Source: an uncultured candidate division Zixibacteria bacterium
GTDB lineage: Bacteria; Zixibacteria; MSB-5A5; SM1-73
Assembly: GCA_903908285.1 (NCBI GenBank)
Contig: CAIVRH010000014.1
Coordinates: forward strand, 57,991 to 121,990
Direction: 5' to 3'
DNA: 64,000 nt
Shown: positions 4,685-44,958 of the stretch, in pieces
How the letters are laid out: each line of letters opens with the position of its first letter
Numbering within the stretch: the first letter of the stretch is position 1
Program-made: the position numbers and the translations under genes
Notes under the pieces: generated by a model
What the model saw: only the letters and a program-made list of their open reading frames with translations
Databases searched by the model: none
Told to the model about the DNA's origin: nothing

Positions 4685-4892
4685 CGCCGACGAGAAGTAA
4701 AGCAATTTCAATTAAACTTGTCAATAAAAATATCTGCCCTGTTCTTCAGATACCCAATACCTATCATAAACTACTGGCAAAATCCAAAAACAACCGTGAG
4801 AATTGGTGAAAACTCTTGCCAAAAGCGCCTTCTCTTACTATATTATTATTGTTCAAAATCGAGAAAACACCTTCGGGCTATGGGAGGTTAAA

Positions 4893-6674: not shown

Positions 6675-6749
6675 AATAAAATGACGAATGCTTTATAACG
6701 AATGACGGATCTGTCTATGACAGATAACCTAAGAGAGGAGGAGTATAAG

Positions 6750-8846: not shown

Positions 8847-11537
8847 TCATTCACAAGGTGCCGGTCCGCTTTTGAAAAGATAGTTGATTAAGGAGATCAC
8901 ATCTCCAACGTCCACTATCCCATCACAATTGGCATCACCAACGGTCAAAGGATAAGGCGGAATGCCGTTTTTGTAAAGATAGTTGGTCAGAAAAACGACA
9001 TCCGATATATCTACGGAACCGTCACCATTGACATCACCAGGAATATAATAAAGAGTGTCACTGTTGTTGATTGCGAACATAAGCTCCCATACTGCCATGG
9101 GACGCTGGTACTGGTTCGGATATCCGGAGGAGATATCCTCTCCTTCTTTCGGCTCCGATTTCTCATCGGCGAGGGTGTGATCATTTCTCCAATTTGAAAC
9201 AAAATTGGGGCGGGGACTATATCCTCCATCCCGCCAGGCCTCGGGAGTGTTGAACCAGTAAGCCAGATGATTTGCGACATATACCGGATAGTAGGCTCCA
9301 TAGGCGGTATTCAGCGCCTCGTTGATCAAACCCGAACGATACATCATGGCGGCCAGGTAATAAGTGGTTCCCACCCAGTATTCATAAGATTCCCGTTCAC
9401 CGCTGGGAACAGTTGCACCGCTGGGCATTCTCTCCAATTTAGCACCGTAATTCGAATTAGGAGCTACATTGACATTATATACCTTTCTCATGTGCGAGGT
9501 CAGCTTCCAGCGGGGCAGAATGTCGGGCAAACCGTATTCCTCGCAGTAGCGCTGACCACACAGGGCATCGCTGAAGACGGCAGTGGTATAGCTGCTTTTA
9601 GTATCGATATGGTAATAAAGTCCAGCGGTGTCCCACAGCTCTGCATCCAGATTTCTCCGAGCCACCTCCAACCAGGCTTGTACTTCCCCCCTTACCGGTT
9701 TGTTCAAAATGGCAGCCATGGTATCCATTGCTTCCAACGCACCTACCCAGAATCCGCCGTCGTACATATCCGTTCCCCACATGCCCAGACAGTCATGAGC
9801 GTTGTCATATCCTTTAGATTCCGGCAGTGAATCTTTGGGTTCATCTTCACAATCATAATCCTTCATAAACTGATATGTGCTCTCTATGGCGGGCCAAACA
9901 TAGTTTAAAAAATCGACATCATTAGAGAGAGAAAAATATCTCCAGCATTGTTGAATGAACTTACTGGAATTGTCGATCAAGACGTGAATGTGACCGCTGT
10001 CACAGGGAGCCAGCCGGTTCTCGTAACCATGCGGGCTCAGCACAAAGAACGGATCTCCATGATCGCAAGCCTCACCGGAAAAATCTCTGGGCGAACCGAT
10101 CTCCGGCGAGGTTTGGTGGGGAACGGAGGGATTGCACTGGTCATAATATAAAACATAATCCGCATGACATCTTAACAGGTCTCTTTCCATCTCCGGCCAG
10201 AATCTGGCAAAAACCACCGAACTATAATGGCCCACGTTGATATTGCCGGATAAAGTGTACGCCTGGGATTCCATGATGAAATTTTTGTGATCTTCCGGAT
10301 GCAGACCCATGAATTCCTCGGGATAGCCGGATCTTAATCCCGATTCCCAAAAAGACCCGCCGAACTGGTTATAATACAGTTCATTGAAAGCCGCACAGAT
10401 GAGCCAATCCGGGTAGCGGTTGTCGTCAATATATCTGGACATCCAAGCATCGATTTGCGCCTCCCAGACCGGATAGTTTTGGAGGGCTTCTTGGGCTATC
10501 TGGAAGGAATTGTCACTTGAAGTATCGAAATATTCGCAATACCTTTTCCACCACTGTGTGGAGTGTTCCAATCCGAAGATGTTTTTGAATTCGACTACCG
10601 GAAAATCCCAGGAAAGCACCAGTGGCACTGTTATTTTTTCTCCGGGAGCCAGCACTGCCTTTACCGCAATGGCGGAAGCAGAATCGAGGGAGTTGATGTT
10701 GTTTGACAATATCCCATCATCGGAGAATTGGTTCCAAATATCCGAACCGTCCCCCCCTCTATCCCAACTGGCATAGGAAACCGTCACTCTTTCGGTAGCT
10801 TGGGTGGCAATGCACCATTCGGAATTTTCAGTTTCAACCGTATTGGAAGGGTTATTTGCCTTTAACACGATTCCTATATTTCCGGAATCCGAAACCAAGG
10901 TATTGGAAAAACCGGTTCTGACTCTCTTCCCGCCATTAAAAGGAGGATTAGGCCAGGTAAACATGACTGAAACTTCAGCAATTTCCGAAGTGGGATTGGA
11001 AAATTCAAATTGCCAGACCGCTACCGGATAGGAGGTTTCCCGATAATTATTGGGTATGATCGGACTAAAAAACTCAGAAGATACGTCACACTTGAAGCAG
11101 TTATAAACACACCACCCTTTGGGCTGGAGCGCATAATAGGAGCCTTCGCCTTGAGCCATTTTATTCCAGGCCGGCATCATCGTATCCCGGGAGAGACATT
11201 TGACCTTTTTCCCCCCCTCGCATTCTTCGTAAATATGGAAAGCTCCCTCCTTCAGCCAGGTACTGCTGTATTCTCCGACTTCATCCGCCCAGGGTCCAAA
11301 AGAGCCGCTGATATTATACATGAAAGCGCCGGCGCCGAATCCTCCCAGAACTATACCTCTCTTGGGACAATTGCTCTGACAACCGGTCGGAACGTCACCG
11401 ATGGTCCTTTGCCATGCTCCTCTTGGTATCTCCAATGTTTTCCGGACATCCGCAGCAATATCGGTAATCCAAAATGAAAACAGAAGCATTACGAAACCAT
11501 ATATCAACCAACTGTGGCATATCCGATTATAGCGCAT
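8847..11537 (-). CDS. Secreted glycoside-hydrolase-like protein (GH116/DUF608-like (alpha/alpha)6 family) with C-terminal type-I dockerin
   Basis: N-terminal hydrophobic signal. RGIVLGGFGAGAFMYNISGSFGPW resembles the GH116 N-terminal PLGGIGTG motif. C-terminus GDVNGDGSVDISDVVFLTNYLYKNG...GDANCDGIVDVGDVISLINYLFKSGPAPCE is a duplicated dockerin Ca-binding repeat. Confidence 0.65.
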   Translation of the reverse strand: MRYNRICHSWLIYGFVMLLFSFWITDIAADVRKTLEIPRGAWQRTIGDVPTGCQSNCPKRGIVLGGFGAGAFMYNISGSFGPWADEVGEYSSTWLKEGAFHIYEECEGGKKVKCLSRDTMMPAWNKMAQGEGSYYALQPKGWCVYNCFKCDVSSEFFSPIIPNNYRETSYPVAVWQFEFSNPTSEIAEVSVMFTWPNPPFNGGKRVRTGFSNTLVSDSGNIGIVLKANNPSNTVETENSEWCIATQATERVTVSYASWDRGGDGSDIWNQFSDDGILSNNINSLDSASAIAVKAVLAPGEKITVPLVLSWDFPVVEFKNIFGLEHSTQWWKRYCEYFDTSSDNSFQIAQEALQNYPVWEAQIDAWMSRYIDDNRYPDWLICAAFNELYYNQFGGSFWESGLRSGYPEEFMGLHPEDHKNFIMESQAYTLSGNINVGHYSSVVFARFWPEMERDLLRCHADYVLYYDQCNPSVPHQTSPEIGSPRDFSGEACDHGDPFFVLSPHGYENRLAPCDSGHIHVLIDNSSKFIQQCWRYFSLSNDVDFLNYVWPAIESTYQFMKDYDCEDEPKDSLPESKGYDNAHDCLGMWGTDMYDGGFWVGALEAMDTMAAILNKPVRGEVQAWLEVARRNLDAELWDTAGLYYHIDTKSSYTTAVFSDALCGQRYCEEYGLPDILPRWKLTSHMRKVYNVNVAPNSNYGAKLERMPSGATVPSGERESYEYWVGTTYYLAAMMYRSGLINEALNTAYGAYYPVYVANHLAYWFNTPEAWRDGGYSPRPNFVSNWRNDHTLADEKSEPKEGEDISSGYPNQYQRPMAVWELMFAINNSDTLYYIPGDVNGDGSVDISDVVFLTNYLYKNGIPPYPLTVGDANCDGIVDVGDVISLINYLFKSGPAPCE

Positions 11538-19206: not shown

Positions 19207-21453
19207 TTATCCTGAACAGGGGGCGGATCCGCTTCTGTAAAGGTAATTGAGCAAGAAAATCACGTCCGTGATATCAACCAGGGTGTCCATGTTGACATCC
19301 CCCAATCCTATCGGATCCGGCGGCGAGCCTGCTTTGTACAGGTAATTGATAAGATAGATTAAATCCGCTACATCAATCTGTCCGTCCCGATTAGCATCCC
19401 CGCACGCAAAGGAGATATCCACTTCTTTCTGAGAAGGGATGTAGTTCTGTTTGGTAACGGTTACGTACATATACCCTTCCGTCGAGGAGGGGGAAGGTGT
19501 AAAAGTGACATCTCCACCGGCATCGGTAAAAGCCGTTAGATAGACCTCGTTGGACTTCCACAAACAAACATACGCCTGGTCTACCGGAACACCGGCAGTA
19601 GCATCCTCCACATGCACCGGAAAGGATGAACTTCCCCCGGGAGCAGTGGAAGCACAGGTGACCGTAAAACTATCCAGCGAATCAGTCCAAACCGGCATCT
19701 CCGGCTCGCCCAAGAGATTGAACTCCCATTCACAGTATCTCATATAATTATCGGTATTGGCATAATGATGCTTGGCATCCGCTAAGGTTTGACCCAGGTG
19801 GTGCATGCTGCGGCTGAACAGGCTCACCCACCACTGCTTGTCCAAGCCGGCAGAAAGACTAAAGGGTTGTCCGGAATAGAATAGCCCGTTACGGGTATTG
19901 CCGTTGAATGCCACCCCAGCTTGATTGGAGTTGTACATGACAAAACGTTCCGAAATACAATCACTGGCATCCATATGATTGACTTCACAGGCGAGGGAAA
20001 CTAATATGGACAACTGGTTATCGTTGGTCAGCGCATCCACATCGCTAATACCGATGGACCAGGTATGGTGATAGTCGCCGGTACACATAACGGTGATATT
20101 GCCATGGTCGGCGTGATTTACCAGATTTTGACCGGCATTGAGGGCGTTGATGACCGCGGTTCTGTGGTTGGTAGATTGGCTGTCATAGACTTTGGTTACG
20201 TTAAACTGGGCTGGAATATACGCGTCGATACTGTCCTTTAACATTTCCTCCCGGGTAGAGCCATCCACATCCATTCCGATAAGTAAAACATCCAATGAAA
20301 AATCGGTTCGAGGAGGATCTTTTTCATACTTAAGAACCTTGTTTACGAAGAGAGTAACCTCGGCAGTGCTCCCGACTGTAGCTCTACCCACGAAAACCTC
20401 GTTGGTCCAATCATTGTCATAGTCGGAGTAATACTGATCGCTGGGCGCGCTTTGGTCGTAATATAAACGGTAGCCAAACGGAACCGTCGCAGTTTCACCA
20501 CCGAGGAGAAAATAAGTGGTTCCCCAGTTAGTGGCAGCATCCATGACAAAGGCACGCACTTTCTGGGTGTCTGCACCGGTGTAGTTGGCGTAGATCCATG
20601 CCTTGGTTATGACCGTATCTCTTACCCCTTTCTGGTTATGCCAATCGACCAAAGGTTGAAAGGAGGAAGCATAAGCGGAGTCTGTAATGATGACATGGGC
20701 AAAAGGTCCTCCCGGGGGTATCATGGAAGTAGCCATTTTCAAACCTTGGACCAATTGAACTGCCTCGGGGTTATTCACCATTCCCTTTACCATCTGCTCG
20801 TAGGTTCTCCTATCACTTTCCGGAAGTTTGGATGAAAGGTAATCTCCGCATTCGTATCCGCTAACTCCTTCGATCTCGATGGTGATGGAGGAAAAGTAGC
20901 TAAGCTGTTTTTGGCTGGGAATGTAACTGAGAGGAAATATCTCCACCACTGCCATGCTTTGACCGGCTAAATCCGTCTGGTTGACAAACTGCACTAATTC
21001 TGCAGGATATGGCTGGGAAGAAGAATAGGTCTGGGCGTCAGGTGGAATGAAATCTGCATTGGTTGGGGATTGGCTGGTTAGCAACGGAAGTTGGGCTGGA
21101 TAGATATTATACACACCAGGGATTTGCACTTCGGTCTGGCTAACCACCCGTACACTATTAACCGCCATTCCGGAGGGGAGGGCAATTATGATCTCCTTGG
21201 TTGGCAACATCGGTTTTCCCAGCTCTGAGAGCCAGTTACCGTCTTTGAGATTTACCATATCATAATCATTCAGCTGGCTGAATGAAAAGTCGTCTTTAGA
21301 AAACTGGGCAGTATACCTAACGGAAAGTGCATCTTTACCGTCGGCAGCTACGGCTTGTGCCGAGACAAGATCAACCCACAATAGAGTGGATACAAACAAC
21401 AACAGCAGAGAAACAAAAATCGCCCCGGTAGAAAATGATATGGATTTATTCAT
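19207..21453 (-). CDS. Gingipain-like cysteine peptidase (family C25) with C-terminal type-I dockerin
   Basis: Start at MNKSISF after an AAGGAGA Shine-Dalgarno, with signal peptide. Catalytic His/Cys context HADHGNITVMCTGDYHH...LVSLACEVNHMD. C-terminus GDANRDGQIDVADLIYLINYLYKAGSPP...GDVNMDTLVDITDVIFLLNYLYRSGSAPC. Confidence 0.7.
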   Translation of the reverse strand: MNKSISFSTGAIFVSLLLLFVSTLLWVDLVSAQAVAADGKDALSVRYTAQFSKDDFSFSQLNDYDMVNLKDGNWLSELGKPMLPTKEIIIALPSGMAVNSVRVVSQTEVQIPGVYNIYPAQLPLLTSQSPTNADFIPPDAQTYSSSQPYPAELVQFVNQTDLAGQSMAVVEIFPLSYIPSQKQLSYFSSITIEIEGVSGYECGDYLSSKLPESDRRTYEQMVKGMVNNPEAVQLVQGLKMATSMIPPGGPFAHVIITDSAYASSFQPLVDWHNQKGVRDTVITKAWIYANYTGADTQKVRAFVMDAATNWGTTYFLLGGETATVPFGYRLYYDQSAPSDQYYSDYDNDWTNEVFVGRATVGSTAEVTLFVNKVLKYEKDPPRTDFSLDVLLIGMDVDGSTREEMLKDSIDAYIPAQFNVTKVYDSQSTNHRTAVINALNAGQNLVNHADHGNITVMCTGDYHHTWSIGISDVDALTNDNQLSILVSLACEVNHMDASDCISERFVMYNSNQAGVAFNGNTRNGLFYSGQPFSLSAGLDKQWWVSLFSRSMHHLGQTLADAKHHYANTDNYMRYCEWEFNLLGEPEMPVWTDSLDSFTVTCASTAPGGSSSFPVHVEDATAGVPVDQAYVCLWKSNEVYLTAFTDAGGDVTFTPSPSSTEGYMYVTVTKQNYIPSQKEVDISFACGDANRDGQIDVADLIYLINYLYKAGSPPDPIGLGDVNMDTLVDITDVIFLLNYLYRSGSAPCSG

Positions 21454-21631
21454 CCAGTTCTCCTTGGAGGTTAGGTTGGTGAATAGGAACAAAAAAAAGA
21501 GATTTCGAGAAGGGTCATAGGGAATTTCTTCCAAATAATGAACAGCCTTAATTAATACGTTAATACTCTTAAATATAATTTAACTAAATTCCTGAATTTG
21601 TCAAAGGTTTTCTAATACTAAAATCACTCGA

Positions 21632-23697: not shown

Positions 23698-24009
23698 AAG
23701 ATTCCCCTCGTCTTTTATCTATGTTTACCAATTATAGTATAACTTACCGACATATTTTGTCAACTACTTATTTTGATATTTTGGGGAGGGAAATGGGTAT
23801 GAGGATAGCTAAATTGTATTATCTTATTGTCAATCACTATGTCAGGAGCCTAAGGGCTAATAACCTATTCGGCTGTCGAGTCTAAAGCTACATTTGTCAG
23901 GCAAAATCCGCTTGCTTTTTAAGAAACTATAACTATATTGGGACTGCAAAATAAAAACTTTACAATTCGGAATACCTCTTTTTGCCTACTCCAAAAACCG
24001 GAGGTTCCT

Positions 24010-25551
24010 ATGCGTTCTCTAACGATTATAATTTGCACTATCCTCATTCCCTGCTCTTTTTATCATGCACGATCAACCGAAATCCATGCCGGATCAGAGG
24101 CGACTCCCCAGATACTCTGGTGGTACGATTTGAATGCTCCCTCTTTCGGGTCATCCGCGGTTGGTGATATCGATCATGATGGAAAATTGGAAATCGTTTT
24201 CGGAACCTATTTCAATGACGAATATATTTATGCCTTGAATGCCGACAGCGGCACTCTTCTGTGGAGATATAACACCGGGGGCTGCAATGATGCTTCTCCT
24301 GCAATAGCTGACGTCGACTTAGACGGTGCTTTAGAAGTGATCGTGCCCGCATCCTCCCCTTGCAGGATTTATTGTTTCAATGGAGCCAACGGAGCAGTCA
24401 AATGGTCAATTTCCACCAGCTCAAACTCCATCGACTCTCCGCCAGCGGTCGCAGATGTGGATAACGATGGTAAACCAGAAGTGATTTTTGGCACCTTCTA
24501 TGGCTACGTTTACTGCCTTAATGGTGAGGATGGAAGCCAATGCTGGCGCATCAACCTGGGAACCAGCAGTTACATTCAGTCCGAACCTAATATCCTCGAC
24601 GTTAATCAGGATGGGCAGTTGGATGTGGTAGTGGCTCAATGGGCCGGCAATAACCGGGTCTATGCCTTACGAGGAAACAATGGCTCCACTTTGTGGTATT
24701 CCGACTTGCCCAACGATGATATGTATCATGGCGGTTCCTTTGCGGATATTGACGAAGATGGCAAACCGGAGATCGCCATTGGCTGTTACGATAATAATCT
24801 TTATGTGTTAAATGGTGAAGATGGCAGTCTCAGGTGGCAATATACCGCACCTTATTACATCGGTGCACCTACCTCCATGGCTGACCTCAATAATGACGAT
24901 CACCTGGAGATAGTCATCGCTTCCTACAATATCATAAGAGCTTTATCTCATACCGGGAGCATGCTCTGGAGCTATACTGCGGGTGGTGGTTCATTTCGCG
25001 GATCTGCCATCGCGGATATCGATGGCAACGGCATTCTCGATGTCGCATTCGGTGCAGACGATGGCATTCTTAGAGTGTTAAGAGGTGATAGTGGTCAGGT
25101 AGTCTGGACTTATAATCTGCAAGCCCATTATGGAAGAACTTTTGAGATGGACCATGCGCCGGTGATTGCAGATTTTAATAATGATGGCAAACTGGATATT
25201 TTCATCATAGGCGGATATGGAACTTCCTCTCCGCCCAGTTCGAACCATGGGCGGGCTTATGCGCTTTCTGCCGGAAATGGCACAGGTCCCGGTTGGCCTA
25301 TGTTTCGACACGATCTCAGGCACAGCGGTAACTTTTATGGTTTCGTCTCTTTCATCCGGGGTGACGCTAACGGCGATAGTATTGTAACTGTCAGCGACGT
25401 GGTTTATCTGATTAACTATCTTTTCCATGGTGGCACACCGCCTGAACCGTTGGATGCTGGAGATGCCAATTCCGATCACACGGTTGACATTACGGATGTG
25501 GTATATTTGATCAACTACCTCTTCAAAGGTGGTCCACCTCCATGCAAATAA
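24010..25551 (+). CDS. Secreted FG-GAP/integrin-alpha-like beta-propeller protein with C-terminal type-I dockerin
   Basis: GGAGG Shine-Dalgarno and signal peptide MRSLTIIICTILIPCSF. Eight blades of D(I/V)DxDGKxE(I/V) (DIDHDGKLEIV, DVDNDGKPEVIF, DFNNDGKLDIFI and others). C-terminus RGDANGDSIVTVSDVVYLINYLFHGGTPP...GDANSDHTVDITDVVYLINYLFKGGPPPC. Confidence 0.75.
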   Translation: MRSLTIIICTILIPCSFYHARSTEIHAGSEATPQILWWYDLNAPSFGSSAVGDIDHDGKLEIVFGTYFNDEYIYALNADSGTLLWRYNTGGCNDASPAIADVDLDGALEVIVPASSPCRIYCFNGANGAVKWSISTSSNSIDSPPAVADVDNDGKPEVIFGTFYGYVYCLNGEDGSQCWRINLGTSSYIQSEPNILDVNQDGQLDVVVAQWAGNNRVYALRGNNGSTLWYSDLPNDDMYHGGSFADIDEDGKPEIAIGCYDNNLYVLNGEDGSLRWQYTAPYYIGAPTSMADLNNDDHLEIVIASYNIIRALSHTGSMLWSYTAGGGSFRGSAIADIDGNGILDVAFGADDGILRVLRGDSGQVVWTYNLQAHYGRTFEMDHAPVIADFNNDGKLDIFIIGGYGTSSPPSSNHGRAYALSAGNGTGPGWPMFRHDLRHSGNFYGFVSFIRGDANGDSIVTVSDVVYLINYLFHGGTPPEPLDAGDANSDHTVDITDVVYLINYLFKGGPPPCK

Positions 25552-25608: not shown

Positions 25609-27600
25609 ATGAAAGCCTCACGTTCGCTTTCGTGCCTTATTGGAGTTTGTATTCTCTTGGCAATCGGTTTTTTCATTTTCCCGATTGCAAGCTCCTTCGC
25701 TGCCGTGCCGCAGCTGATTAACTACCAGGGTAAGCTGACCAAAGCTTCTGGTGCACCAGTAGACACGACCATCTCAATGGTCTATACTATCTATTCAGAC
25801 TCAAATGGTATAACTTCTAAGTGGAGCGAAACGCAAACATCAGTTAAAGTAGAGAAAGGAATATTTAATGTTTTGTTGGGGAGTACGATTGCTATTCCCG
25901 ATTCGGTTTTTGATGGCAATATCCGATATCTGGGTGTGAAAGTTGGAAGCGACCCGGAGATAACACCAAGAAAGGCGATGGTGAGCGTGCCTTATGCTTA
26001 TCGTGCAGCATCAGGTGGAGGCGGAAGTGATAATAAATGGATCTTCCGGATAACTGATACTGCCGACACAAGTATAACAACCGGCGGTAACTGGGGCATT
26101 GCCCGGCGCGGTGCAACTTTGTTCGGGGATATGGACTCCACGCATGTTAATCTTGGAGTTTCCTGCACCACAGGTGTAAGTACCCATAGTAACAAGTATT
26201 GCACTGTTGCAGGAGGACTCGCTAACACAGCCAACGAATCAGCTACAACTGTGGGAGGGGGATATCGCAATATGGCCAGTGGTTTTATTGCAACGGTGGC
26301 AGGAGGTGACAGCAATGTTGCTAGTAACAACTTTACAACTGTAGGAGGTGGGCATGTAAACACCGCCAGCGGTCCGTATTCGTTTGTAGCAGGTGGATTT
26401 CGTAACACCGCCAGTGGTTATGCTGCAACCGTGGGAGGTGGAAACGGCAACATCGCCAGCAGCTGGGATGCAACGGTGGGGGGTGGACAGGGCAACTTTG
26501 CCAGCGGAAGTCATGCAACCGTGGGAGGTGGATTTTCCAACACCGCTAGCAACCCTTTTGCAACGGTAGGAGGTGGATTTTGGAACACTGCCAGTGGTGA
26601 TTCCTCAACCATAGGCGGGGGGGTGTGGAACACCGCCAACCGCCCTTATGCCATGGTAGGCGGTGGAAGTCACAACACCGCCAGCGGAGACTATGCAACG
26701 GTGGGAGGTGGATATTGCAACACTGCCAACCGATCCTATGCAACCGTAGGAGGTGGATATTCCAACACCGACAGCAGCGATGGTGGAACGGTGGGAGGTG
26801 GAATTAGCAATACTGCCAGCGGACAATATGCAACCGTGGGAGGCGGAGTGATGAACACCGCCAGCAGCTATCATGCAACCGTAGGAGGTGGAATTTTTAA
26901 CACCGCCAGCGGGTATGAGGCAACCGTAGGAGGTGGAGATCACAACACCGTCACCGGAAGCGATGCAACCGTGGGAGGTGGTAATTATAACTCCAATAGT
27001 GGCGATGGTTCCGCTATCCCAGGAGGAGGTTATGATACTCTGACCGTAGCAGCAGTGAATTCTATGGCATTTGGTTATATGGTTTATGTCAACAACTCCT
27101 ATAGGGTGATATTCTTTGACGGAACTATCAGTGGTAGGCTCGGCATAAACCGGGACGACCATGATGGCGGAATCTCTTATCCCATCCACGTTGGAACTAG
27201 CACCGCCAACGGTAACGGAGCCTATCTGACCGCTGGTGGTGTCTGGACCAATGGCTCTAGCCGCACATTTAAAGAAAAGTTTCAGACACTGAATAACCAG
27301 GAGCTTCTGGAGAAAATCTCCAGCTTGCCGGTAGAATCCTGGAATTATAAGAATTCGACGGAACGACATATCGGACCGGTGGCAGAGGATTTTGTGTCTG
27401 CTTTCGATGTAGGCGCTGTTAGAGAGGATGGCACCCGTGACAACAAATATCTCTCAACCGAGGACATAGCAGGTGTAGCTCTGGCAGGAGTAAAAGAGCT
27501 GATCAAGGAGAACCAAGAGCTAAAGCAAATGATCGAGCAACTCCAAAGGAACAATACCTTGTTGGAAGATAGATTAACCCATGTGGAAAAAACAAGATGA
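25609..27600 (+). CDS. Secreted fibre protein: N-terminal domain, about 14 Hep_Hag/YadA-head-like 20-aa repeats, C-terminal intramolecular-chaperone autoprocessing domain (Peptidase_S74-like)
   Basis: Signal peptide MKASRSLSCLIGVCILLAIGFFIFPIASSFA. Repeats of consensus (Y/H)ATVGGG(x)NTASG. C-terminus SSRTFKEKF...SWNYKNSTERHIGPVAEDF...coiled-coil LIKENQELKQMIEQLQ matches the endosialidase/tail-fibre chaperone domain, with a Ser...Lys spacing compatible with the catalytic dyad. Confidence 0.7.
   Translation: MKASRSLSCLIGVCILLAIGFFIFPIASSFAAVPQLINYQGKLTKASGAPVDTTISMVYTIYSDSNGITSKWSETQTSVKVEKGIFNVLLGSTIAIPDSVFDGNIRYLGVKVGSDPEITPRKAMVSVPYAYRAASGGGGSDNKWIFRITDTADTSITTGGNWGIARRGATLFGDMDSTHVNLGVSCTTGVSTHSNKYCTVAGGLANTANESATTVGGGYRNMASGFIATVAGGDSNVASNNFTTVGGGHVNTASGPYSFVAGGFRNTASGYAATVGGGNGNIASSWDATVGGGQGNFASGSHATVGGGFSNTASNPFATVGGGFWNTASGDSSTIGGGVWNTANRPYAMVGGGSHNTASGDYATVGGGYCNTANRSYATVGGGYSNTDSSDGGTVGGGISNTASGQYATVGGGVMNTASSYHATVGGGIFNTASGYEATVGGGDHNTVTGSDATVGGGNYNSNSGDGSAIPGGGYDTLTVAAVNSMAFGYMVYVNNSYRVIFFDGTISGRLGINRDDHDGGISYPIHVGTSTANGNGAYLTAGGVWTNGSSRTFKEKFQTLNNQELLEKISSLPVESWNYKNSTERHIGPVAEDFVSAFDVGAVREDGTRDNKYLSTEDIAGVALAGVKELIKENQELKQMIEQLQRNNTLLEDRLTHVEKTR
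26200..27030 (+). repeat. In-frame 60-nt tandem repeat array (about 14 units) inside the fibre gene
   Basis: Periodic ...caaccgt(g/a)ggaggtgg...aacac(c/t)gccagcgg... units visible in the DNA. They encode the TVGGGxxNTASG protein repeats. Confidence 0.8.
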
Positions 27601-27617
27601 TCACAGAGAGGTGTAAG

Positions 27618-28175
27618 ATGATAAGAACAAAATTTGTCTTTTGGGTGTGTTTGATCTTGATTCTTCTCCTCAATTTCGCTTTAGCGGTGAGTCTGGAAAG
27701 GACTTCAACTCAGATAAAGCCAAAGGAAGAACCAAAGACCAGAGATTTCTCCAATGCCAACCCCATAACGACTACCGAGGTGAATCAGACTCCCAGTAGT
27801 CTACCAACGTCAACCAATTTCATTATGGTTACAGATGTCTTGGATGGTTTTGGTGGTCAGAAGCAAGGTAATGCCTGCGATCTCTCCTTTTTTGCAGGTG
27901 GTCAATCTTCACCTATCGGTATGGGATCAAGCACAAATTTCAAGCTCTATGCTGGATTTGTCTATCCGGCAGTGGTGAATTGCGGCGATGCTAATGCGGA
28001 TGGGGTGATAGACGTGGGAGATCTGGTATATCTGATCAACTATCTTTTCAAAAGCGGACCCCTTCCCAAACCCTACCAGGCGGGTGATGCCAACTGCAGC
28101 GGAACTGTCGATATAGGTGACGTGGTATATTTGATCAATTACCTGTTCAAAGCCGGACCGCCACCAACCTGTTGA
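27618..28175 (+). CDS. Small secreted dockerin-only protein (about 185 aa)
   Basis: GAGAGGTG Shine-Dalgarno before ATG 27618. An ATGA overlap start at 27597 is also possible. Signal peptide MIRTKFVFWVCLILILLLNFALA. C-terminus CGDANADGVIDVGDLVYLINYLFKSGPLP...GDANCSGTVDIGDVVYLINYLFKAGPPPTC. Confidence 0.65.
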   Translation: MIRTKFVFWVCLILILLLNFALAVSLERTSTQIKPKEEPKTRDFSNANPITTTEVNQTPSSLPTSTNFIMVTDVLDGFGGQKQGNACDLSFFAGGQSSPIGMGSSTNFKLYAGFVYPAVVNCGDANADGVIDVGDLVYLINYLFKSGPLPKPYQAGDANCSGTVDIGDVVYLINYLFKAGPPPTC

Positions 28176-28206: not shown

Positions 28207-28244
28207 AGCCGAATCTCTGACTTCAGAGGTTCGGCTGTTTTTCT
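28207..28244 (+). terminator. Rho-independent terminator
   Basis: agccgaatctctga cttc agaggttcggct followed by gtttttct. Confidence 0.65.
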
Positions 28245-28411
28245 GTGCTGGAAACTTGATTATCGTACTTTAAGTTGTACTATCAGGAGTTACGCTGTTG
28301 ATACGACTCTGTAAATATAACATTTAGATCGATTAAACTGACACAATTCTTTGTTTCACCCCATTTGGACAATTGCTCTCTCTTTTGCTTATAATTTTCT
28401 AAAAAAAACCG

Positions 28412-28578: not shown

Positions 28579-29970
28579 ATGAAGCATGGTTTTGTTTTTC
28601 TTGGTGTGATTCTTTTTATTCTTATATTGTCTTGTTTTTCCTACGCCGGAGGCGGCTTTGCTTTCCCCGGGGTGGGTTCCAAAGCCCTGAGTATGGGAGG
28701 GGCTTTCCGGGGTCTGGCTGACGATTGGAGTGCTGCATTTTGGAACCCGGGCGGACTGGCATACCTGTCCAACACCGAAATCAGCTCTAGTTTCTATGTC
28801 CTCAACTTCAGACCCGAGTATACTCCCAGCATGAAACTTGGAGAATCGGATTATACTTTCGGATATCCCGCGGTTACTTCCTATCCTGAAGATCGGGCGT
28901 TTTTCCTTCCCAATATTTCCGGATTTTATAAATTTACCCAATTGAATGGATTTACCGGGGGAGTGGCATTTTATGCCCCATACAAGATGCAATCCCAATG
29001 GAATCTCTACAAGCCTCCCATGGGGTATAATAATACCATCGAATATCCCAAATATGATCATGTTACCAACATCTTGATTTGGGATATACATCCCAGCGTG
29101 GCGAAAAGTTTCATGGAAGGTAAACTCGGCTTGGGTCTTGGGATTTCCATCGAAAGAGCGGATTTCGAACTGCGCCGAACGGTTTTGGTTCCCACCACAT
29201 ATCCTCGACCTTACGATTTCTTCCCCTATGATGCCCGGATGAAAACCGATGGCTGGGGCGTGGGATTCAATGCCGGAGTTCTTTACAAATACAGTCCGAA
29301 ACTACAATTCGGGCTTTCATATCGCAACCCGATTGATCTCAACCTTTCCGGTAGCATGAAACTGGAGATGTATTATCCCAGGATCACCGGCTCCCAAATT
29401 CTGGGAGGAATCACCAGCTATAAAGACAACAACTTCGAAACCACGCTATCACTTCCGGGTGAGATAGGTTTTGGGGTGATGTACAAACCGATAGAAAAAC
29501 TCACCCTTACATCCGACATCAGCTCGGTCAACTGGTCCTGTCTTGAATCCATCGATACCAAAGATTTCACTCTTACCCAAAGCCAAAACGACACCCTCTA
29601 TCTGGACGTAAGGGATGCCAAGATTCCATTTAACTGGGAAAATATAATCAGATTCAGTCTGGGTGGGGAATATATGTTAAAAGAGAATCTTAACGTCCGG
29701 GGAGGATATTTCTTCGAAAAGACCCCCATCCCCAACTCCACCTTTACCTTGCTTATTCCCGACGTGGGTGACAAACACAGCATCAATCTGGGTCTTTCAT
29801 ACAAAATCAATTCCGTTGAATTGGGTTATGATTATCAACTGGTAACATATAAAAAGAGAGACGTAAAGGATTTTGAAGATGTGAACGGAGATGGTCGTTT
29901 TGACAACATGCCGGGAAGCTACAAGATGATTTACCATTGTTCCGGATTATCTTTCTGCTATCATTTTTAA
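28579..29970 (+). CDS. Outer-membrane beta-barrel of the FadL/OmpP1/TodX family (the same family as the T9SS component PorV/LptO)
   Basis: Signal peptide. N-terminal family signature GVGSKALSMGGAFRGLADDWSAAFWNPGGLAYL. Alternating amphipathic strands. C-terminal aromatic CYHF. Confidence 0.7.
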   Translation: MKHGFVFLGVILFILILSCFSYAGGGFAFPGVGSKALSMGGAFRGLADDWSAAFWNPGGLAYLSNTEISSSFYVLNFRPEYTPSMKLGESDYTFGYPAVTSYPEDRAFFLPNISGFYKFTQLNGFTGGVAFYAPYKMQSQWNLYKPPMGYNNTIEYPKYDHVTNILIWDIHPSVAKSFMEGKLGLGLGISIERADFELRRTVLVPTTYPRPYDFFPYDARMKTDGWGVGFNAGVLYKYSPKLQFGLSYRNPIDLNLSGSMKLEMYYPRITGSQILGGITSYKDNNFETTLSLPGEIGFGVMYKPIEKLTLTSDISSVNWSCLESIDTKDFTLTQSQNDTLYLDVRDAKIPFNWENIIRFSLGGEYMLKENLNVRGGYFFEKTPIPNSTFTLLIPDVGDKHSINLGLSYKINSVELGYDYQLVTYKKRDVKDFEDVNGDGRFDNMPGSYKMIYHCSGLSFCYHF

Positions 29971-31421: not shown

Positions 31422-31787
31422 TGAATAAGTAGTGGTTTATCGGTTTGCTGGAAAACCACCAAAGAACGGTTTATCATATCCAACCTGGTTCTATTAAGGA
31501 GAAGACGCCAAATAGGCTGAACCCAAAGATACACCACCCGCTCCAAGTGTACCGATTTGTTGCTTCCACCGGATTGAGAATAACCATCCAAGGTGGGAAT
31601 CACTTAAGGAAATCAATGATCCCAATAAATCAAAACCTGCCGGAATTCCCAAATAGCAAATCTTCCGTTTACCTGTGGGAATTTTTATTAAACGATTTTT
31701 TATAATCAGAACCAACGGGTTTTGATATGGTTGGCAAAGATCGTCCGAAATATACCGATGATACTCAAAAAGGGGTTATCTAACTTT

Positions 31788-34016
31788 ATGCACACAATCT
31801 CTCGCCTGATCAAAAAATCCATCTTTTTCTGGGTGTTATGCATTTCCCTGGTCAGTTTTTCATCCATCGGGCATGCGGGAACCGGTCCCTCCTGGGTTCC
31901 GCTGGTTCCTGTTGCAGATAAAACTCCCCGGGTGAATATGTTACGATCCGATCCCGCTCAGTTTACTTTTGAAATCCTGGTGCCGGGAATATGGTCGGAG
32001 GAAATCTCCACCCCGGGGGGAACTTACTCCTTGCTTTCCATACCTTCTGCCGGGGTAACTTCGGTGGTTAGCGAACCCAATTTGCCAGTATTGACCAGGA
32101 TGGTGCAAATTCCGTTTGGTGCAGTGGTGAATTTAAACGTGGAAAGTTATGAGGTCACAGAGAAAAGTCTAACCGATATGAAACTCACCCATCCGATAGC
32201 TCCGGTTCAACCTTCTATACCTAAGATAGCCGGAGCAGAGAAACAAGTCCGATTCACCATCAGCCAGAAATATTATCAGCAAAACTCATTTTTACCGGGA
32301 AATCTGGTCAAGCTGGGAAAAACCGGAATCATCCGGGGACATCGATACGTAACTGTCTTAATCTACCCGGTAAGTTATAATCCGCAGTTAGGGAAATTTA
32401 AAATATACTCCGATATAAGGGTGAAGTTGATCCTTTCGGGGTCGGATATGAGCACCACTCAAAACCAGCTTTTGCGTTATGCCTCCCCCCCGTTCGAGGA
32501 GCTTTGTTCGAAGTTATTCATAAATTATCAGTTCTATACACCCCTGGTCAAAACCAGCGCGGAATTGCCCATGAGCTATCTGATCATCTCCCCTCAGGAT
32601 TTTTATCCGAGCCTGGCTTTGCTGGTAGACTGGAAAACCCGAAAAGGATTCCATGTGACTGTGGCGCAGACTTCGGAAATAGGCTCAACCAAAGAAGAGA
32701 TAAAAAGTTATATTCAGAACGCTTACGACACCTGGACCATCCCCCCCACCTATGTTTTGCTGGTGGGGGATGTCGAATATATTCCCAACTGGATCGGGTC
32801 TTCCAGTTCCACTGCCACGGATCTTAATTACGTCAAGATGGATGAAGATGATTTTGCCGATATATTCCGCGGCAGATTGCCGGCGAAAAGTTTGTCGGAG
32901 GCGGAAGAGATGATAAACAAGATATTATATTACGAGAAGCCAACGTTACCCGATCTGGACTGGATGAAAAAGGCAAGCTTCATCGCCGCTTCCGATTTGA
33001 GCGGTTTTGCCGAAAGAACCCACGATTATGTGATGTTGAATTACTGCAATCCCACCGGGATGATCTGTGATACCATCTGGCAGAGATTGGGCGGATCGAC
33101 CGCCATGATCACCAGCAGCGTCGATGAGGGGAGAACTATCCTGTGTTATTCCGGGCATGGCAGTGAAACCGGCTGGACCAGCGTTCCTTTCAATCAGACT
33201 AATGTGGCGAATCTAACCAATGCAGATGAGTATCCTTTTGTCCTTTCCCATGCCTGTTTGACCGGGAGATTCAGCGTTTCCGAAAGCTATGGCGAAACCT
33301 GGGCCAAGGTGGCAAATAAAGCCGGCATCGCTTTCTGGGGAGCATCCAACTATACCTACTGGGACGAGGATGACATCCTGGAAAAACGGATGTTTCAGGC
33401 GGCATTTGCCGAAACCTGCTTTTCCATCGGCAGCATGACCGACAAAGCTTTGTGGTATCTTTACCAGTACTATGGAGGGGAAGGCTACAGCCAGTATTAT
33501 TTAGATATTTATAATATCATGGGAGACCCCTCCTTAGATCTGTGGACTAAGGTGGCTGATTCCCTCGTAGTAGCTTTCCCACACTTCATTTACCCCGGAA
33601 CAAATTCAGTCACCATCACCGTGCGGGATATCGATTCAGTTGCGGTTTATGGAGCTTTGGTATGCTTAGAAAAGGGGGATGAGATTTTAGAAACCGGTTA
33701 CACCGATCCTTCGGGTCAGTTAACTTTATATCCTTCTCCCCTCACCTCAGGGGCAATAAATGTGACCGTCACTGCCCATAATTTCCTGCCTGTGTTAGAT
33801 TCCATCCTGGTATCATCCGGGAAGGGTGATGTTACCGGCGACGGCGAGATCAATCTGGGGGATTTGGTCTTTCTCATGAACTATCTTTACAAGAATGGAC
33901 CTGCCCCCGCTCCTTTGACCAACGGTGATGTAAACTGTGACGATAAGATCAATTTGGGAGATTTGGTTTATCTGATCAATTATCTGTATAAGGGAGGCTC
34001 CTCTCCCTGTTCTTAA
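31788..34016 (+). CDS. Gingipain-like cysteine peptidase (family C25) with C-terminal type-I dockerin (paralog of 19207..21453)
   Basis: Signal peptide MHTISRLIKKSIFFWVLCISLVSFSSIGHA. Catalytic region ILCYSGHGSETGW...FVLSHACLTGRF. C-terminus GDVTGDGEINLGDLVFLMNYLYKNGPAP...GDVNCDDKINLGDLVYLINYLYKGGSSPC. Confidence 0.75.
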   Translation: MHTISRLIKKSIFFWVLCISLVSFSSIGHAGTGPSWVPLVPVADKTPRVNMLRSDPAQFTFEILVPGIWSEEISTPGGTYSLLSIPSAGVTSVVSEPNLPVLTRMVQIPFGAVVNLNVESYEVTEKSLTDMKLTHPIAPVQPSIPKIAGAEKQVRFTISQKYYQQNSFLPGNLVKLGKTGIIRGHRYVTVLIYPVSYNPQLGKFKIYSDIRVKLILSGSDMSTTQNQLLRYASPPFEELCSKLFINYQFYTPLVKTSAELPMSYLIISPQDFYPSLALLVDWKTRKGFHVTVAQTSEIGSTKEEIKSYIQNAYDTWTIPPTYVLLVGDVEYIPNWIGSSSSTATDLNYVKMDEDDFADIFRGRLPAKSLSEAEEMINKILYYEKPTLPDLDWMKKASFIAASDLSGFAERTHDYVMLNYCNPTGMICDTIWQRLGGSTAMITSSVDEGRTILCYSGHGSETGWTSVPFNQTNVANLTNADEYPFVLSHACLTGRFSVSESYGETWAKVANKAGIAFWGASNYTYWDEDDILEKRMFQAAFAETCFSIGSMTDKALWYLYQYYGGEGYSQYYLDIYNIMGDPSLDLWTKVADSLVVAFPHFIYPGTNSVTITVRDIDSVAVYGALVCLEKGDEILETGYTDPSGQLTLYPSPLTSGAINVTVTAHNFLPVLDSILVSSGKGDVTGDGEINLGDLVFLMNYLYKNGPAPAPLTNGDVNCDDKINLGDLVYLINYLYKGGSSPCS

Positions 34017-41511: not shown

Positions 41512-41553
41512 AAGCATTTTACTACTATGCATTCATTCTTCAAGGGGGATCAG

Positions 41554-44500
41554 ATGAAAGGAAAATCACTTCTTAAATGTGTTTTATTGGTTTTGATTGG
41601 AATTACGTTTTTTTATTCTACATGTGTAGCTATTATCTACGTTTGTATAGACCCCGGACATGGCGACAATAAGCATGGATCTGAAGGTCAACATTTCCAC
41701 AGTTTAGAGAAAAATGCCAATCTTAAAGTCGGATTGGCATTAAGAGATTCTTTGAACACACTTGGATATCCAGATTCAACAGTAAGAGTGATTATGACTC
41801 GAACTGGTGACACAAACCCTAGTTTCCAACAACGAGCTGCCTGTGCTATGGGTGATAATCCTGATAGTGCAAGAGCAAGTCAGTTCATTATTATTCATCA
41901 TAACGGCGATACTTCTGATGTTACTAATTACATCATGTCTTATGTTTGCACTTATGTGGATCAAATTCCTGGTGACACTACTGAGAGGGACATAAGCATA
42001 AATCTGGTAGACAGGGTTCAGGCAAAGATGGTTGATATTTTGGGATATAAAGAGGCTTCTCAGAGACTAAAAGATAGCTGTTGGTACGTCTTAGAGTATA
42101 CTAGCATGATTTCTGCTTACCCAGAAGTATCTTTTATGACATGTAGGAAGATAGATTCTCTTTTTCATTACGATACTACCTATGCAAGAAAAGAAGCAGG
42201 GAGTATATACCGTGGATGGCGTGCATATATGGGAGATGATCCCATTATAGTCGTAAGGAATCACTTTGACGGAGGTTATGTTTTGGTGGATAGTATCTCC
42301 CGTGAGTCCCCCTTTCACGGAGCTTGGATGAATGGTGAATCACATCGCATCGGAGCTTACAATCAAACTGGCTATGGTGCAGATGGCTACTATCGATGGT
42401 ACGAGTTTTGCCGATGGCAAGACCAAATATCCCAGCAAGAGCGGAATATCTATGTTGGTAATGACGATGAGGTATATACAGCTTATTTCTCTTGGGACAA
42501 TTCAGGCTCTCATCCCTATTACATAATAGTGCAAAGTCCAAATGGAGATGAGAGTTACGGCATGGGACAAATCATGCCCATTTGTTGGTATGCCGACCCG
42601 GGTATTATCGACCCTGATGGAAATTGTAATGGAACTTTTCTGGATATTTATCTTTCAAGAAACGGAGGTCAAAACTATGATGAAATTATTCAATCGGATT
42701 GGCCAACTTCCGGAAACGCATACGGCTGCTATGAATACTGGCATGTCACAGGTCCCCCGTCTGGTCAATGTAAAATCAAGATATTAGCACATGATGATAT
42801 TTGTAACAATGATTATGATGTCTCAAATTATAATTTTGCTATATTGTGTGCTCCCCAGCCTAATTCTCCTTCTAATCTGATTGCAACGAATTATGGATGT
42901 GATGCACGCATTTCCTTATACTGGCAAGATAATTCTACAACTGAGGATGGTTTCAATATTTATCGGGATGGGCAACTTACCGGTTCCGTGGGAGCAAATG
43001 TTACCACGTTCACCCAAACGGGACTTCATCCGGGTCAAAGTTATTCTTATTATGTCAAAGCACAAAGACAAGGGTGTGAATCCGCACCCACCAACACGGT
43101 GAGTTCGGTTCCGGGACTCCTTACCCCAACCGCTCCTACGAATCTTCAGGTGGTGAACGTTGGGCCGTGCGAATTCCGAGCCACATGGCAAGACAATTCA
43201 TCCAACGAAGATGGTTTTGTCATAAAAAATGGAACTTTTTTACATGCAAGGGTTGATCCCAACATTACCAGCTATCAGGGATACTATTTCCCGGAAGCAG
43301 AATGGAAGCAAACTGGTGATTTCTACGTGTATGCTTATACCGACGATCCTGGCAGTGGTTGTAAATCTTACTCCAATCATGTGAACCTTGACCCACCTGG
43401 TGGTTTAATGCTCTGGCCTACTGACATTCAATTCCACGGCTCTGATTGCTATTGGTATATCACCTGGCATAAAAGAGACAACTACGACCGGTGCCAGGTC
43501 AAAATCAAGTACACCGATTATACTACCACCACCGGCTGCGATGAACAATACAACTTTTGGTATACCCAGCTTTCATCCCCGGATAGTTTCCGGTTTCTGC
43601 CCAGTGTGGGCGATCATTGTTATCAAGCGCAGGTTCGTGGGGGCAAGTGGGTGGATTGTGGGTCCTACGGAGATATGAAATGGTCGGAATATCCCCCACC
43701 TACTTACTGGGTGCGGATTATCTGCAACAATCCACCCTGGGGTTGCCCTTACCTTTTTGTACCCGATGGAGAAAAATACGTTGGCGAGAATACCATTTTG
43801 GCGCCGGCAGAAATGTCAACGGAGAGGGACTTAGACATCAACGATTACTATCTCATACGTCAATCGTTAACTCCAATAGATAGTCTGTATAAGCTTCGTA
43901 TAGCTGAATTCGAAAGTGAACACTCCTTCTTTGACCAAGTAAAGCTTTTGGCGGTAGATCATGATCTTAGCACGAAAGCGGCGGTGTCTGCAAAAGGCGA
44001 AGTATTCGTTTATAATCCCACCGACTATTTCGAGCCTATCTCCTGCAGTGATAGAAACGGGGTAAATAAAGACTCCCTCCTCCAATTAGAACCCGAAGAT
44101 AAAGTTTTTCTTTCTGGATCGGGTTCTCTGACTTTAAATTTCGGATCGATTCCCTCGGATACCGGAAGTCTGATTATGCTCGCTCCCTGCTGCGGGAGCC
44201 CCAAGTTCCCCAAGGCTATTACCAAGATTGCATCCGGGGCAGAACCAACCCAGCAAATCGGCTTGTTGGTTGAGACGGAGGGGAATGGGGTTTGGCAGAA
44301 AGTCGACTCGCTTCCGCCAAGAATGGAACAGCAGGAAGTTCTGGTAAATCTCTCCGATCACACCTCCCCGGAGCGGGCGCTAAAAATAAAACTGAGCTGG
44401 GACGAAAGAGGTTATACCTTTTCCAAAGTTCGCTGCTTGCGGGCGCAAAGGTTTAATCAACCGGTATCTCTACCGTTGATTTCCGCTTACCATTCCTCGG

Positions 44501-44958
44501 CCGGTGAGGTGAAGCAGAAACTAACCTCGAATGACAATGACTATGCGGAAGTTTTGCCCGGACAAAATATCGATTTATCTTTTTCCTATCAGCCAGTCGA
44601 GCCGAATAAAGTCAGGGATTTGGTATTCGAGTGTAACGGGTATTATTTCACGGAAAATACGGCTCCGGACAGCAGCAGTGATACCAGCGAGATCTCGCAG
44701 AATTATCCCAACCCTTTTAATCCGCAGACTCAGATCAAATTTACCGTAATCAAAACTGCACCGGTAAATCTGGCAATTTATAATATTCTCGGACAAAAAG
44801 TCGCCACTTTAATGGACGAAACATTGCCGGTGGGAAAACATGTGGTAATTTGGAACGGCGAAGACGATTCCGGTCAAAAAGTGGCAAGCGGTATTTATTT
44901 CTATCGTCTTCAAGTAGGGGAGTTTAATGAAGTAAGGAAGATGATACTGATGAAATAA
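41554..44958 (+). CDS. Giant secreted protein: N-terminal Amidase_3-like domain, central region, two FN3-like modules, C-terminal T9SS sorting domain
   Basis: AAGGGGGAT Shine-Dalgarno and signal peptide. Amidase motifs CIDPGHGDNKHG, LEKNANLKV, FIIIHHNGDT. FN3-like NLIATNYGCDARISLYWQDNSTTEDGFNIYRDG and NLQVVNVGPCEFRATWQDNSSNEDGFVIKNG. CTD ISQNYPNPFNPQTQIKFTV...IYNILGQKVATLMDE...GIYFYRLQVGEFNEVRKMILMK. Confidence 0.75.
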   Translation: MKGKSLLKCVLLVLIGITFFYSTCVAIIYVCIDPGHGDNKHGSEGQHFHSLEKNANLKVGLALRDSLNTLGYPDSTVRVIMTRTGDTNPSFQQRAACAMGDNPDSARASQFIIIHHNGDTSDVTNYIMSYVCTYVDQIPGDTTERDISINLVDRVQAKMVDILGYKEASQRLKDSCWYVLEYTSMISAYPEVSFMTCRKIDSLFHYDTTYARKEAGSIYRGWRAYMGDDPIIVVRNHFDGGYVLVDSISRESPFHGAWMNGESHRIGAYNQTGYGADGYYRWYEFCRWQDQISQQERNIYVGNDDEVYTAYFSWDNSGSHPYYIIVQSPNGDESYGMGQIMPICWYADPGIIDPDGNCNGTFLDIYLSRNGGQNYDEIIQSDWPTSGNAYGCYEYWHVTGPPSGQCKIKILAHDDICNNDYDVSNYNFAILCAPQPNSPSNLIATNYGCDARISLYWQDNSTTEDGFNIYRDGQLTGSVGANVTTFTQTGLHPGQSYSYYVKAQRQGCESAPTNTVSSVPGLLTPTAPTNLQVVNVGPCEFRATWQDNSSNEDGFVIKNGTFLHARVDPNITSYQGYYFPEAEWKQTGDFYVYAYTDDPGSGCKSYSNHVNLDPPGGLMLWPTDIQFHGSDCYWYITWHKRDNYDRCQVKIKYTDYTTTTGCDEQYNFWYTQLSSPDSFRFLPSVGDHCYQAQVRGGKWVDCGSYGDMKWSEYPPPTYWVRIICNNPPWGCPYLFVPDGEKYVGENTILAPAEMSTERDLDINDYYLIRQSLTPIDSLYKLRIAEFESEHSFFDQVKLLAVDHDLSTKAAVSAKGEVFVYNPTDYFEPISCSDRNGVNKDSLLQLEPEDKVFLSGSGSLTLNFGSIPSDTGSLIMLAPCCGSPKFPKAITKIASGAEPTQQIGLLVETEGNGVWQKVDSLPPRMEQQEVLVNLSDHTSPERALKIKLSWDERGYTFSKVRCLRAQRFNQPVSLPLISAYHSSAGEVKQKLTSNDNDYAEVLPGQNIDLSFSYQPVEPNKVRDLVFECNGYYFTENTAPDSSSDTSEISQNYPNPFNPQTQIKFTVIKTAPVNLAIYNILGQKVATLMDETLPVGKHVVIWNGEDDSGQKVASGIYFYRLQVGEFNEVRKMILMK

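Follow-up and report, generated by a model that had tools for sequence, protein, structure and literature searches.

A gene whose predicted product ends in the manner of a phage tail fibre, and which is followed directly by a small gene for a dockerin protein, lies in the chromosome of an uncultured member of the Zixibacteria, and the locus raises the question of what such a fibre is and whether the dockerin protein has anything to do with it. The DNA analysed, called the window below, is a stretch of 64,000 nucleotides (GenBank assembly GCA_903908285.1, contig CAIVRH010000014.1, positions 57,991 to 121,990). Within it the two open reading frames (ORFs) are found where a preliminary description had placed them, namely at 25609-27600 (663 aa) for the fibre gene and at 27597-28175 (192 aa) for its partner, here called ORF B, both on the + strand, and the motifs INYQGKLT, WSETQ, GIFNVLLGS, GSSRTFKEK and RHIGPVAEDF named in that description are all present. 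The answer favoured here, to which we would give an even chance, is a self-processing chromosomal fibre of the MAT type known from Bdellovibrio, combined with a dockerin-bearing adaptor that would tether it to the cell surface; the core of the preliminary description, which had proposed a self-processing, probably trimeric surface fibre paired with such an adaptor, is retained. The kind of fibre is already described and common, and it is the neglected module of the downstream gene that constitutes the more interesting result.

The fibre, its architecture and its relatives

To judge by its domains, the product of the fibre gene (25609-27600, +, 663 codons and a stop, defined by the ORF call, the domain matches and the homologues) is a MAT-like surface fibre that terminates in an S74 domain. 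In Bdellovibrio, 21 chromosomal MAT fibres have been described, which are prey-recognition adhesins, and in 13 of them the C-terminus is an S74 chaperone/protease, with cleavage at the catalytic serine, as was shown for Bd3182 (Caulton et al., 2024; PMC10769870). The protein of the window resembles these S74-type MATs in its chromosomal origin, in the succession of a signal peptide, a beta-rich N-terminal domain (N-domain) and a repetitive shaft, and in the Ser-x4-Lys arrangement of S74, while both families consist of many paralogues with differing shafts and tips. It departs from them in the distant match of its N-domain, which falls below the NCBI cut-off, in its length (663 aa as against about 1,000 aa), in its regular shaft of 15-aa beta-roll units of the UspA1 type, in reading SSxxxK instead of SDxxxK, and in its Zixibacteria-like host, which has no known predatory lifestyle. 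The claim that this would not be a described combination fails for the fibre, both because of the published S74 MAT plan (PMC10769870) and because a beta-roll head joined to S74 is found in viral libraries.

The chain begins with a predicted signal peptide of 32 residues (25609-25704, +), read from a K/R-rich N-terminus, a hydrophobic core and an A-x-A-like site at its end (...ASSFA/AV), and residues 4-28 of this region form a helix in the AlphaFold2 model. It is followed by the conserved, beta-rich N-domain (residues 33-135, 25705-26013, +), which begins INYQGKL and in which Y39, Q40, G41 and L43 are invariant in an alignment of 27 family sequences; residues 22-93 match the NCBIfam model NF053851, Bdello_MAT_N (E = 3.7e-9, 36.6 bits), and a sub-threshold match to this model is also present in 24 of the 27 family members. 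Between the N-domain and the shaft lies a connector (residues 136-197, 26014-26199, +) that contains DSTHVNLG and is conserved in two family alignments, with a predicted local distance difference test score (pLDDT) below 50 in the monomer model. The mean pLDDT of this model is 67.5: it is confident for the N-domain (85-93 over residues 40-120) and for much of the beta-roll, and weak at residues 127-199 and 504-557.

The shaft itself (residues 198-482, 26200-27054, +) is built of 18 clear units and one degenerate unit of 15 aa, with the column consensus A-T-V-G-G-G-x-x-N-T-A-S-G-x-x and a period of 45 nt in Tandem Repeats Finder. Some 14 near-identical units of 20 aa had been announced, a count and a length that have to be replaced, and the units are also less uniform than was said, with a mean pairwise identity of 55% in protein and 68-69% matches in DNA. 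Over about 215 residues the block runs in register with the head of UspA1 (3PR7), at E = 1.8e-22 when the single sequence is used and at 4.1e-46 with the family profile, and in the AlphaFold2 model it is a beta-solenoid with pLDDT of up to 92. The likeness to a YadA-type head that had been proposed is upheld by this register, but the Hep_Hag assignment that went with it is not, since Pfam Hep_Hag gave no match to the fibre at E <= 0.1. Antisense and off-frame ORFs of up to 254 aa overlap the repeats (for example 25998-26408 and 26605-27369, both on the - strand); as genes they were rejected, since they are most simply explained by the G+C-rich, stop-poor composition of the repeat region, of which they would be by-products.

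The C-terminal part (residues 550-663, 27256-27597, +) is an S74 intramolecular chaperone/autoprotease, as had been supposed, Peptidase_S74 (PF13884) scoring 33.9 bits on residues 550-599, where the gathering score is 22. In the PDB, the fold closest to that of the fibre model is the MyRF ICA domain 7DC3 (Foldseek, probability 1.0, E = 4.7e-3), the family profile reaches MyRF at E = 0.075, and the last 181 aa used by themselves as a query against PDB sequences returned only noise. The coiled coil that had been placed after this domain is borne out to the extent of a C-terminal helix, residues 617-662 of the model. PF13884, a Ser/Lys dyad and a helical C-terminus unite the fibre with the phage K1F endosialidase, the T5 L-shaped tail fibre and the eukaryotic MyRF ICA.

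The putative catalytic dyad, S550-S-R-T-F-K555 (27256-27273, +), follows the family consensus SSRxFK, a variant of SDxxxK, which is the published S74 dyad motif of the MAT fibres (PMC10769870). S550, S551 and K555 are each conserved in at least 90% of 27 sequences, and of the 120 best homologues about 100 have a motif of the SSRxFK type some 110 residues before their end. Autocleavage would be predicted between G549 and S550, and the strongly conserved region that precedes this bond (residues 483-549, 27055-27255, +) could be the mature C-terminal tip left after autoproteolysis, by a position that matches the mature tip of Bd3182 (PMC10769870). The homologies with S74 and with the UspA1 head suggest, in addition, that the fibre is a homotrimer.

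Homologues of the fibre are numerous (2,455 matches at E <= 1e-3), and about 100 of the best 120 have the same architecture, the number of repeats varying from 2 to 23, and the length of the shaft with it. The named relatives belong to Zixibacteria and WOR-3 and carry the NCBI label 'tail fiber domain-containing protein'. When one genome per species was scanned, 227 relatives came up, and the metagenome-assembled genomes (MAGs) that hold them are labelled Zixibacteria, Ignavibacteria, KSB1, Calditrichota, Verrucomicrobia, Nitrospirota and others. In 80 loci, 157 ORFs with the N-domain were counted, in arrays of up to 8 paralogues whose repeats and C-termini differ. Some genome and metagenome loci (L017, L003/L004/L011 and L023) hold 6-8 paralogous N-domain fibre genes in tandem on a single strand.

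The setting of the fibre gene is an ordinary chromosome. Among the genes of the window are those of a permease, a lysyl-PG-synthase-like protein, a sigma-54 activator, a methionine synthase, a ROK kinase and Wza/Wzz-type polysaccharide export, and in agreement with the preliminary description, which had seen no phage gene nearby, no phage structural genes and no tRNA genes are found anywhere in the 64 kb (none, therefore, within about 25 kb of the fibre), nor any capsid, terminase, portal, baseplate or integrase gene. The fibre gave no tblastn match in 50,697 phage genomes, and a search of IMG/VR with patterns of the N-domain yielded no confirmed relative. Traces of a viral connection do exist, in the match of PHROG 1980 'tail fiber protein' (E = 4.3e-8) and in a fold search of a viral model library, in which proteins with a shaft and S74 that resemble the whole fibre protein came up for giant viruses and for uncultured phages (best E = 2e-12). 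Viruses, in other words, possess the shaft and the chaperone as well, and the patterns of the N-domain brought up no viral match; where the S74 spikes of phages have a virion-attachment domain, the fibre has a MAT-like N-domain preceded by a Sec signal peptide, and it lacks the phage context.

The downstream module and its linkage to fibre genes

ORF B had been described as a signal peptide, a linker and a dockerin with nothing else; the dockerin is confirmed, but the supposed linker is a conserved module of about 63 aa (residues 67-129 in the 192-aa numbering, 27795-27983, +), which is marked by three S-x-N-[YF]-x-[LM] motifs plus AGGQSSPIG, and has no match to any Pfam or NCBIfam family. Ahead of it stands a signal peptide or signal anchor, MIRTKFVFWVCLILILLLNFALAVS (27618-27695, +), read from the sequence and modelled by AlphaFold2 as a helix at residues 2-26 with pLDDT above 90. 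Behind it comes a type-I dockerin (27984-28172, +; PF00404 Dockerin_1 on residues 130-183, 35 bits against 22.9), with two Ca-loop/helix repeats, two DxNxDG...D loops and the ending ...GPPPTC.

A hidden Markov model (HMM) of the module, which was built, iterated once and run on the 80 loci and the window, recovered 51 ORFs, of which 50 lie on the strand of the fibre (P about 2e-14), a proportion that makes a compositional artefact of the HMM unlikely. The start of 35 of them falls between -150 and +300 nt from the stop of an N-domain ORF, the pair being present in 33 of the 63 evaluable loci, and the order is that of one or more fibre genes (F) followed by one module gene (M), as FM in 24 cases, FFM in six, FFFM in three and FFFFFM in two. 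The fibres upstream of a module contain from 0 to 17 GGG repeats and may have S74 or not, while the N-domain is common to all those tested. Five module proteins found independently all sit after a fibre gene; the N-domain is clear in three of these fibres (E = 3e-82 to 9e-20), and the remaining two are truncated and have a C-terminal domain in common with the fibre of locus L084.

The same linkage appears when the search is reversed. The metagenome loci chosen by module patterns alone numbered 42, and 23 of their module ORFs, those with 2.5 kb or more of DNA upstream, were evaluable. For 19 of these 23, an ORF with the N-domain ends at a distance of less than 800 nt on the upstream side, and for another three it does so within 2 kb. 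The linkage between module and fibre is conserved in both directions of search, and the pairing is much stronger than could be judged from the sequence of the window alone.

The fibres of L084 (355-2502), L082 (818-1969), L083 (2351-3136) and L085 (135-998) form a different subfamily, each followed by a module-only protein of about 100 aa. That of L084 combines the N-domain known from the other fibres with G-V-Y-G-type repeats as its shaft and a C-terminal domain that is not S74 (DFAEMLP...GYAPLA...GKAL); this last domain is also present in L083 and L085, L082 has only the N-domain in common, and in L083 a transposase-like ORF lies ahead of the N-terminally truncated fibre.

The size of the module family was obtained from an exhaustive HMMER search, counted as cluster representatives at 50% identity: there are 3,580 at E <= 1e-3 and 424 at E <= 1e-10, and most are small secreted proteins with the module right behind the signal peptide. 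In a word-indexed protein database, the single 63-aa module as query gave no match and an alignment as query only 15 short proteins. What follows the module is variable. A type-I dockerin is present in 38 of the 144 best representatives, and in the Zixibacteria-type loci; a sorting domain of the type IX secretion system (T9SS; Por_Secre_tail) follows in L067, L069, L061 and probably L074; the protein of L047 has both; and those of L068 (12464-14920, +, 819 aa, from a MAG labelled Cytophagia) and L072 (12308-14248, +, 647 aa, from a Zhuqueibacterota MAG), directly downstream of fibre genes, combine cohesins, a dockerin and a T9SS domain in the manner of a scaffoldin. In other MAGs the tail is FN3-like, as judged by eye and without a Pfam match, and some module proteins, of about 100 aa, have nothing after the module. 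All the recognisable domains added to the module are of the surface-attachment or scaffold type; the dockerin is an exchangeable attachment device, specific to the lineage, and the defining feature of the partner is the module that precedes it. Module genes were seen in a subset of the MAG labels that carry fibre loci.

Proposed mechanism and rival explanations

In the reading favoured here, the fibre would be exported by the Sec pathway, as its homology suggests, and would fold as a trimer nucleated by the S74 domain, which would then cut itself off before Ser550 by means of Ser550 and Lys555, releasing residues 550-663 and exposing the conserved tip 483-549. The module of ORF B would engage the fibre, most probably through the N-domain that the fibres have in common, a step suggested by synteny and architecture, and the dockerin would plug the assembly into a surface component bearing cohesins; in other lineages the same module would be tethered by a T9SS sorting domain instead. 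A contact between module and N-domain would be the most economical, because a single module gene serves arrays whose shafts and tips differ. In the case of the MATs, it was proposed that the N-domain "would presumably tightly bind a surface element", an element not yet identified (PMC10769870), and a review of 2025 has nothing further on how this domain is held (PMC12428579). With a probability that we place a little below even, then, the 60-residue module could be the adaptor or surface receptor for the MAT-type N-domain, one adaptor displaying arrays of fibres with interchangeable tips; in the same tentative terms, and judged jointly with that proposal, the adaptor may be held by whichever device each lineage possesses, whether this is a dockerin, a C-terminal domain of the T9SS or a scaffold of cohesins. 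Such a modular attachment to the surface would follow the logic of the cohesin-dockerin systems of the cellulosome type and of T9SS attachment, with the difference that the cargo would be a fibre held non-covalently through an adaptor, and not an enzyme fused to its dockerin.

The partner could, on the other hand, act together with the fibre without anchoring its N-domain, as a helper in assembly or secretion, for example by conducting the fibre through the outer membrane, or as a surface component that decorates or caps the fibre, and to this we give a lower, though appreciable, probability. The conserved linkage leaves the point of contact on the fibre unspecified; no signal for export through the outer membrane is recognisable in the fibre, and partners elsewhere carry T9SS domains, so that a piggy-back export is conceivable; and some large adhesins have the module at their own N-terminus. 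The order of a fibre gene and then a small gene also recalls the pairs of fibre and assembly protein in phages, where tail-fibre assembly or accessory proteins such as Tfa and gp38 are encoded downstream of the fibre genes. ORF B is like Tfa and gp38 in being small and encoded right behind a fibre gene in the same direction, and differs from them in being secreted, in its surface-attachment domains and in its single copy per array of differing tips; it has no PHROGs match, hence no detected similarity to phage assembly proteins. Against such a role it can be said that one module gene per array of differing shafts and tips is hardly what a tip-specific chaperone would require, that a folding chaperone is already supplied by the S74 domain, and that the domains which vary at the C-terminus of the partner serve attachment or scaffolding in every case.

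The other explanations were rejected. That the fibre is the tail fibre or tailspike of a prophage or phage remnant, with the dockerin gene as an unrelated neighbour, would accord with S74 being typical of phage fibres, with the PHROG 1980 match and with the viral models of shaft and S74; it is very improbable in a window without phage or tRNA genes, for a protein with a Sec-type signal peptide that finds no tblastn match among phage genomes and no confirmed relative in IMG/VR, and whose relatives form chromosomal arrays of up to 8 paralogues with a conserved linkage to the partner. A chance adjacency in a neighbourhood rich in dockerins might be argued from the six dockerin proteins of the window and from the dockerin genes that also flank the fibre of the closest relative, but the conserved element is the pre-dockerin module, which follows fibres even in lineages where it bears no dockerin, and when loci are chosen by the module, 19 of 23 show an N-domain fibre immediately before it; this explanation is effectively refuted. 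Nor is there more than the slightest probability that the protein is a classical trimeric autotransporter adhesin of type Vc or an ice-binding beta-roll protein. The former is suggested by the strong match to the UspA1 head and by the label 'trimeric autotransporter adhesin' given by the JGI to two relatives, and the 15-residue GGG/N-x-A repeat does align with heads of the kind found in Moraxella UspA1 (3PR7, 3NTN) and in YadA-like proteins; the C-terminus, however, is S74 plus a helix, without a membrane anchor of the YadA type (Pfam, E <= 0.1), and folding of the trimer would presumably depend on S74 and not on an autotransporter barrel. The latter draws on matches to LbR_Ice_bind (17 bits against a threshold of 30) and to 3ULT that are both sub-threshold and are explained by the common geometry of beta-roll repeats.

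Several results weigh against the fibre-and-adaptor reading and have to be set beside it. On the side of the fibre, the Bdello_MAT_N match lies below the curated cut-off (36.6 against 60 bits) and spans model positions 2-76 of 162, that is, the first half only, and the dyad reads SSxxxK in place of the canonical SDxxxK, the Asp being replaced by Ser throughout the family while the Ser-x4-Lys spacing is kept. On the side of the partner, only 35 of the 122 evaluable N-domain ORFs have an adjacent module gene of their own, arrays having one in common, and some long arrays (L003, L011 and L017) have none within the DNA fetched. The gene linkage is equally compatible with other co-functions, and the few large adhesins, rich in immunoglobulin-like domains, that bear the module at their own N-terminus could mean that the module is itself an anchor and not a binder of fibres. 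A downstream module partner is unreported for the MATs, the loci compared here not including those of the Bdellovibrio MATs; no cohesin that could receive the dockerin is encoded in the window; and the AlphaFold2 model of the whole of ORF B (pLDDT 51.6) is too poor for use. Searches of the literature on S74 in combination with trimeric autotransporters found nothing relevant, and those on Zixibacteria in combination with dockerins found none.

If the fibre-and-adaptor reading is accepted, these genes would represent a widespread system of two components, a fibre and its anchor, in which cohesin-dockerin and T9SS attachment would be linked to the display of fibres rather than of enzymes. In any case the MAT-like plan is common in uncultured, apparently non-predatory lineages, the module is a new domain family open to curation, and a conserved, uncharacterised partner that ends in attachment domains is a candidate anchor that can be tested. 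Should binding not be confirmed, there would still be a correction of the annotation, from a 'tail fiber' and a 'dockerin' neighbour to a MAT-like fibre and its accessory protein.

The gene pair and its neighbourhood

The overlap of the two genes by ATGA, from which translational coupling had been proposed, is probably incidental, because in L001, a relative 76% identical, the fibre stop is TAA, no ATG occurs upstream, and the ATG of the partner corresponds to 27618 in the window. From this conserved start ORF B has 185 aa (27618-28175, +), and the two genes would probably be separated by a gap of 17 nt, in which a Shine-Dalgarno-like GAGAGG (27606-27611, +), likewise conserved in L001, stands 6 nt before the start; the alternative, non-conserved ATG at 27597 gives the 192 aa of the longer form (27597-28175), and both starts are found in public gene calls. 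A terminator-like hairpin with a 13-bp stem, 7 G-C pairs and a T-run (28207-28246, +) was detected by a consensus scan 32 nt past the stop of ORF B, and the same scan gave no comparable site between the two genes, it being noted that the total of terminator-like sites in the region is no higher than expected from shuffled sequence; promoter-like sites, at the level of consensus matches, precede the gene after ORF B. The gap, the Shine-Dalgarno-like site and the hairpin after ORF B alone would fit a two-gene chromosomal unit or operon.

Directly after the pair and the hairpin, the window encodes an outer-membrane barrel of the FadL/Toluene_X type (28579-29970, +), which matches PorV/PorQ with 53.5 bits, below the cut-off of 90, and which is not conserved beside the pair in the locus of the closest relative. 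In L001, the gene that follows the partner (3403-4260, +) encodes 285 aa, starts with the fibre N-terminal motif AEVPKLINYQGKL and ends in a dockerin, that is, a fibre-type N-terminus fused to a dockerin, and the HMM of the N-domain did not score it as a fibre.

The dockerin proteins of the window are six in number, a GH116 protein, two C25 peptidases, an FG-GAP propeller, a PD40 protein and ORF B. They had been taken to be enzymes apart from ORF B, which is right for GH116 and the two C25 and wrong for the propeller and the PD40 protein. In five genes, at 8847-11537 (-), 19207-21534 (-), 23938-25551 (+), 27618-28175 (+) and 31722-34016 (+), the dockerin is C-terminal; the GH116, the two C25 (gingipain-like), the FG-GAP protein and ORF B share a stereotyped double dockerin as their ending, which finishes in ...GPxPC or similar in at least four of the five. 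The PD40 (WD40-like) protein (55075-56226, +) has its dockerin match at the N-terminus, residues 27-81, which is unusual among the dockerin proteins here. The dockerin occupies the position that the T9SS sorting domain has in Bacteroidota, and in this lineage it may be a general tag for surface sorting or attachment; T9SS-type C-terminal domains are also found in the window, in the proteins encoded at 4803-6674 and 41527-44958. There is, finally, an ORF of 650 aa (6702-8654, +) without a Pfam match at E <= 1e-4; it lies between the GH116-dockerin gene and the gene of a beta-helix protein whose C-terminal domain is of the T9SS type.

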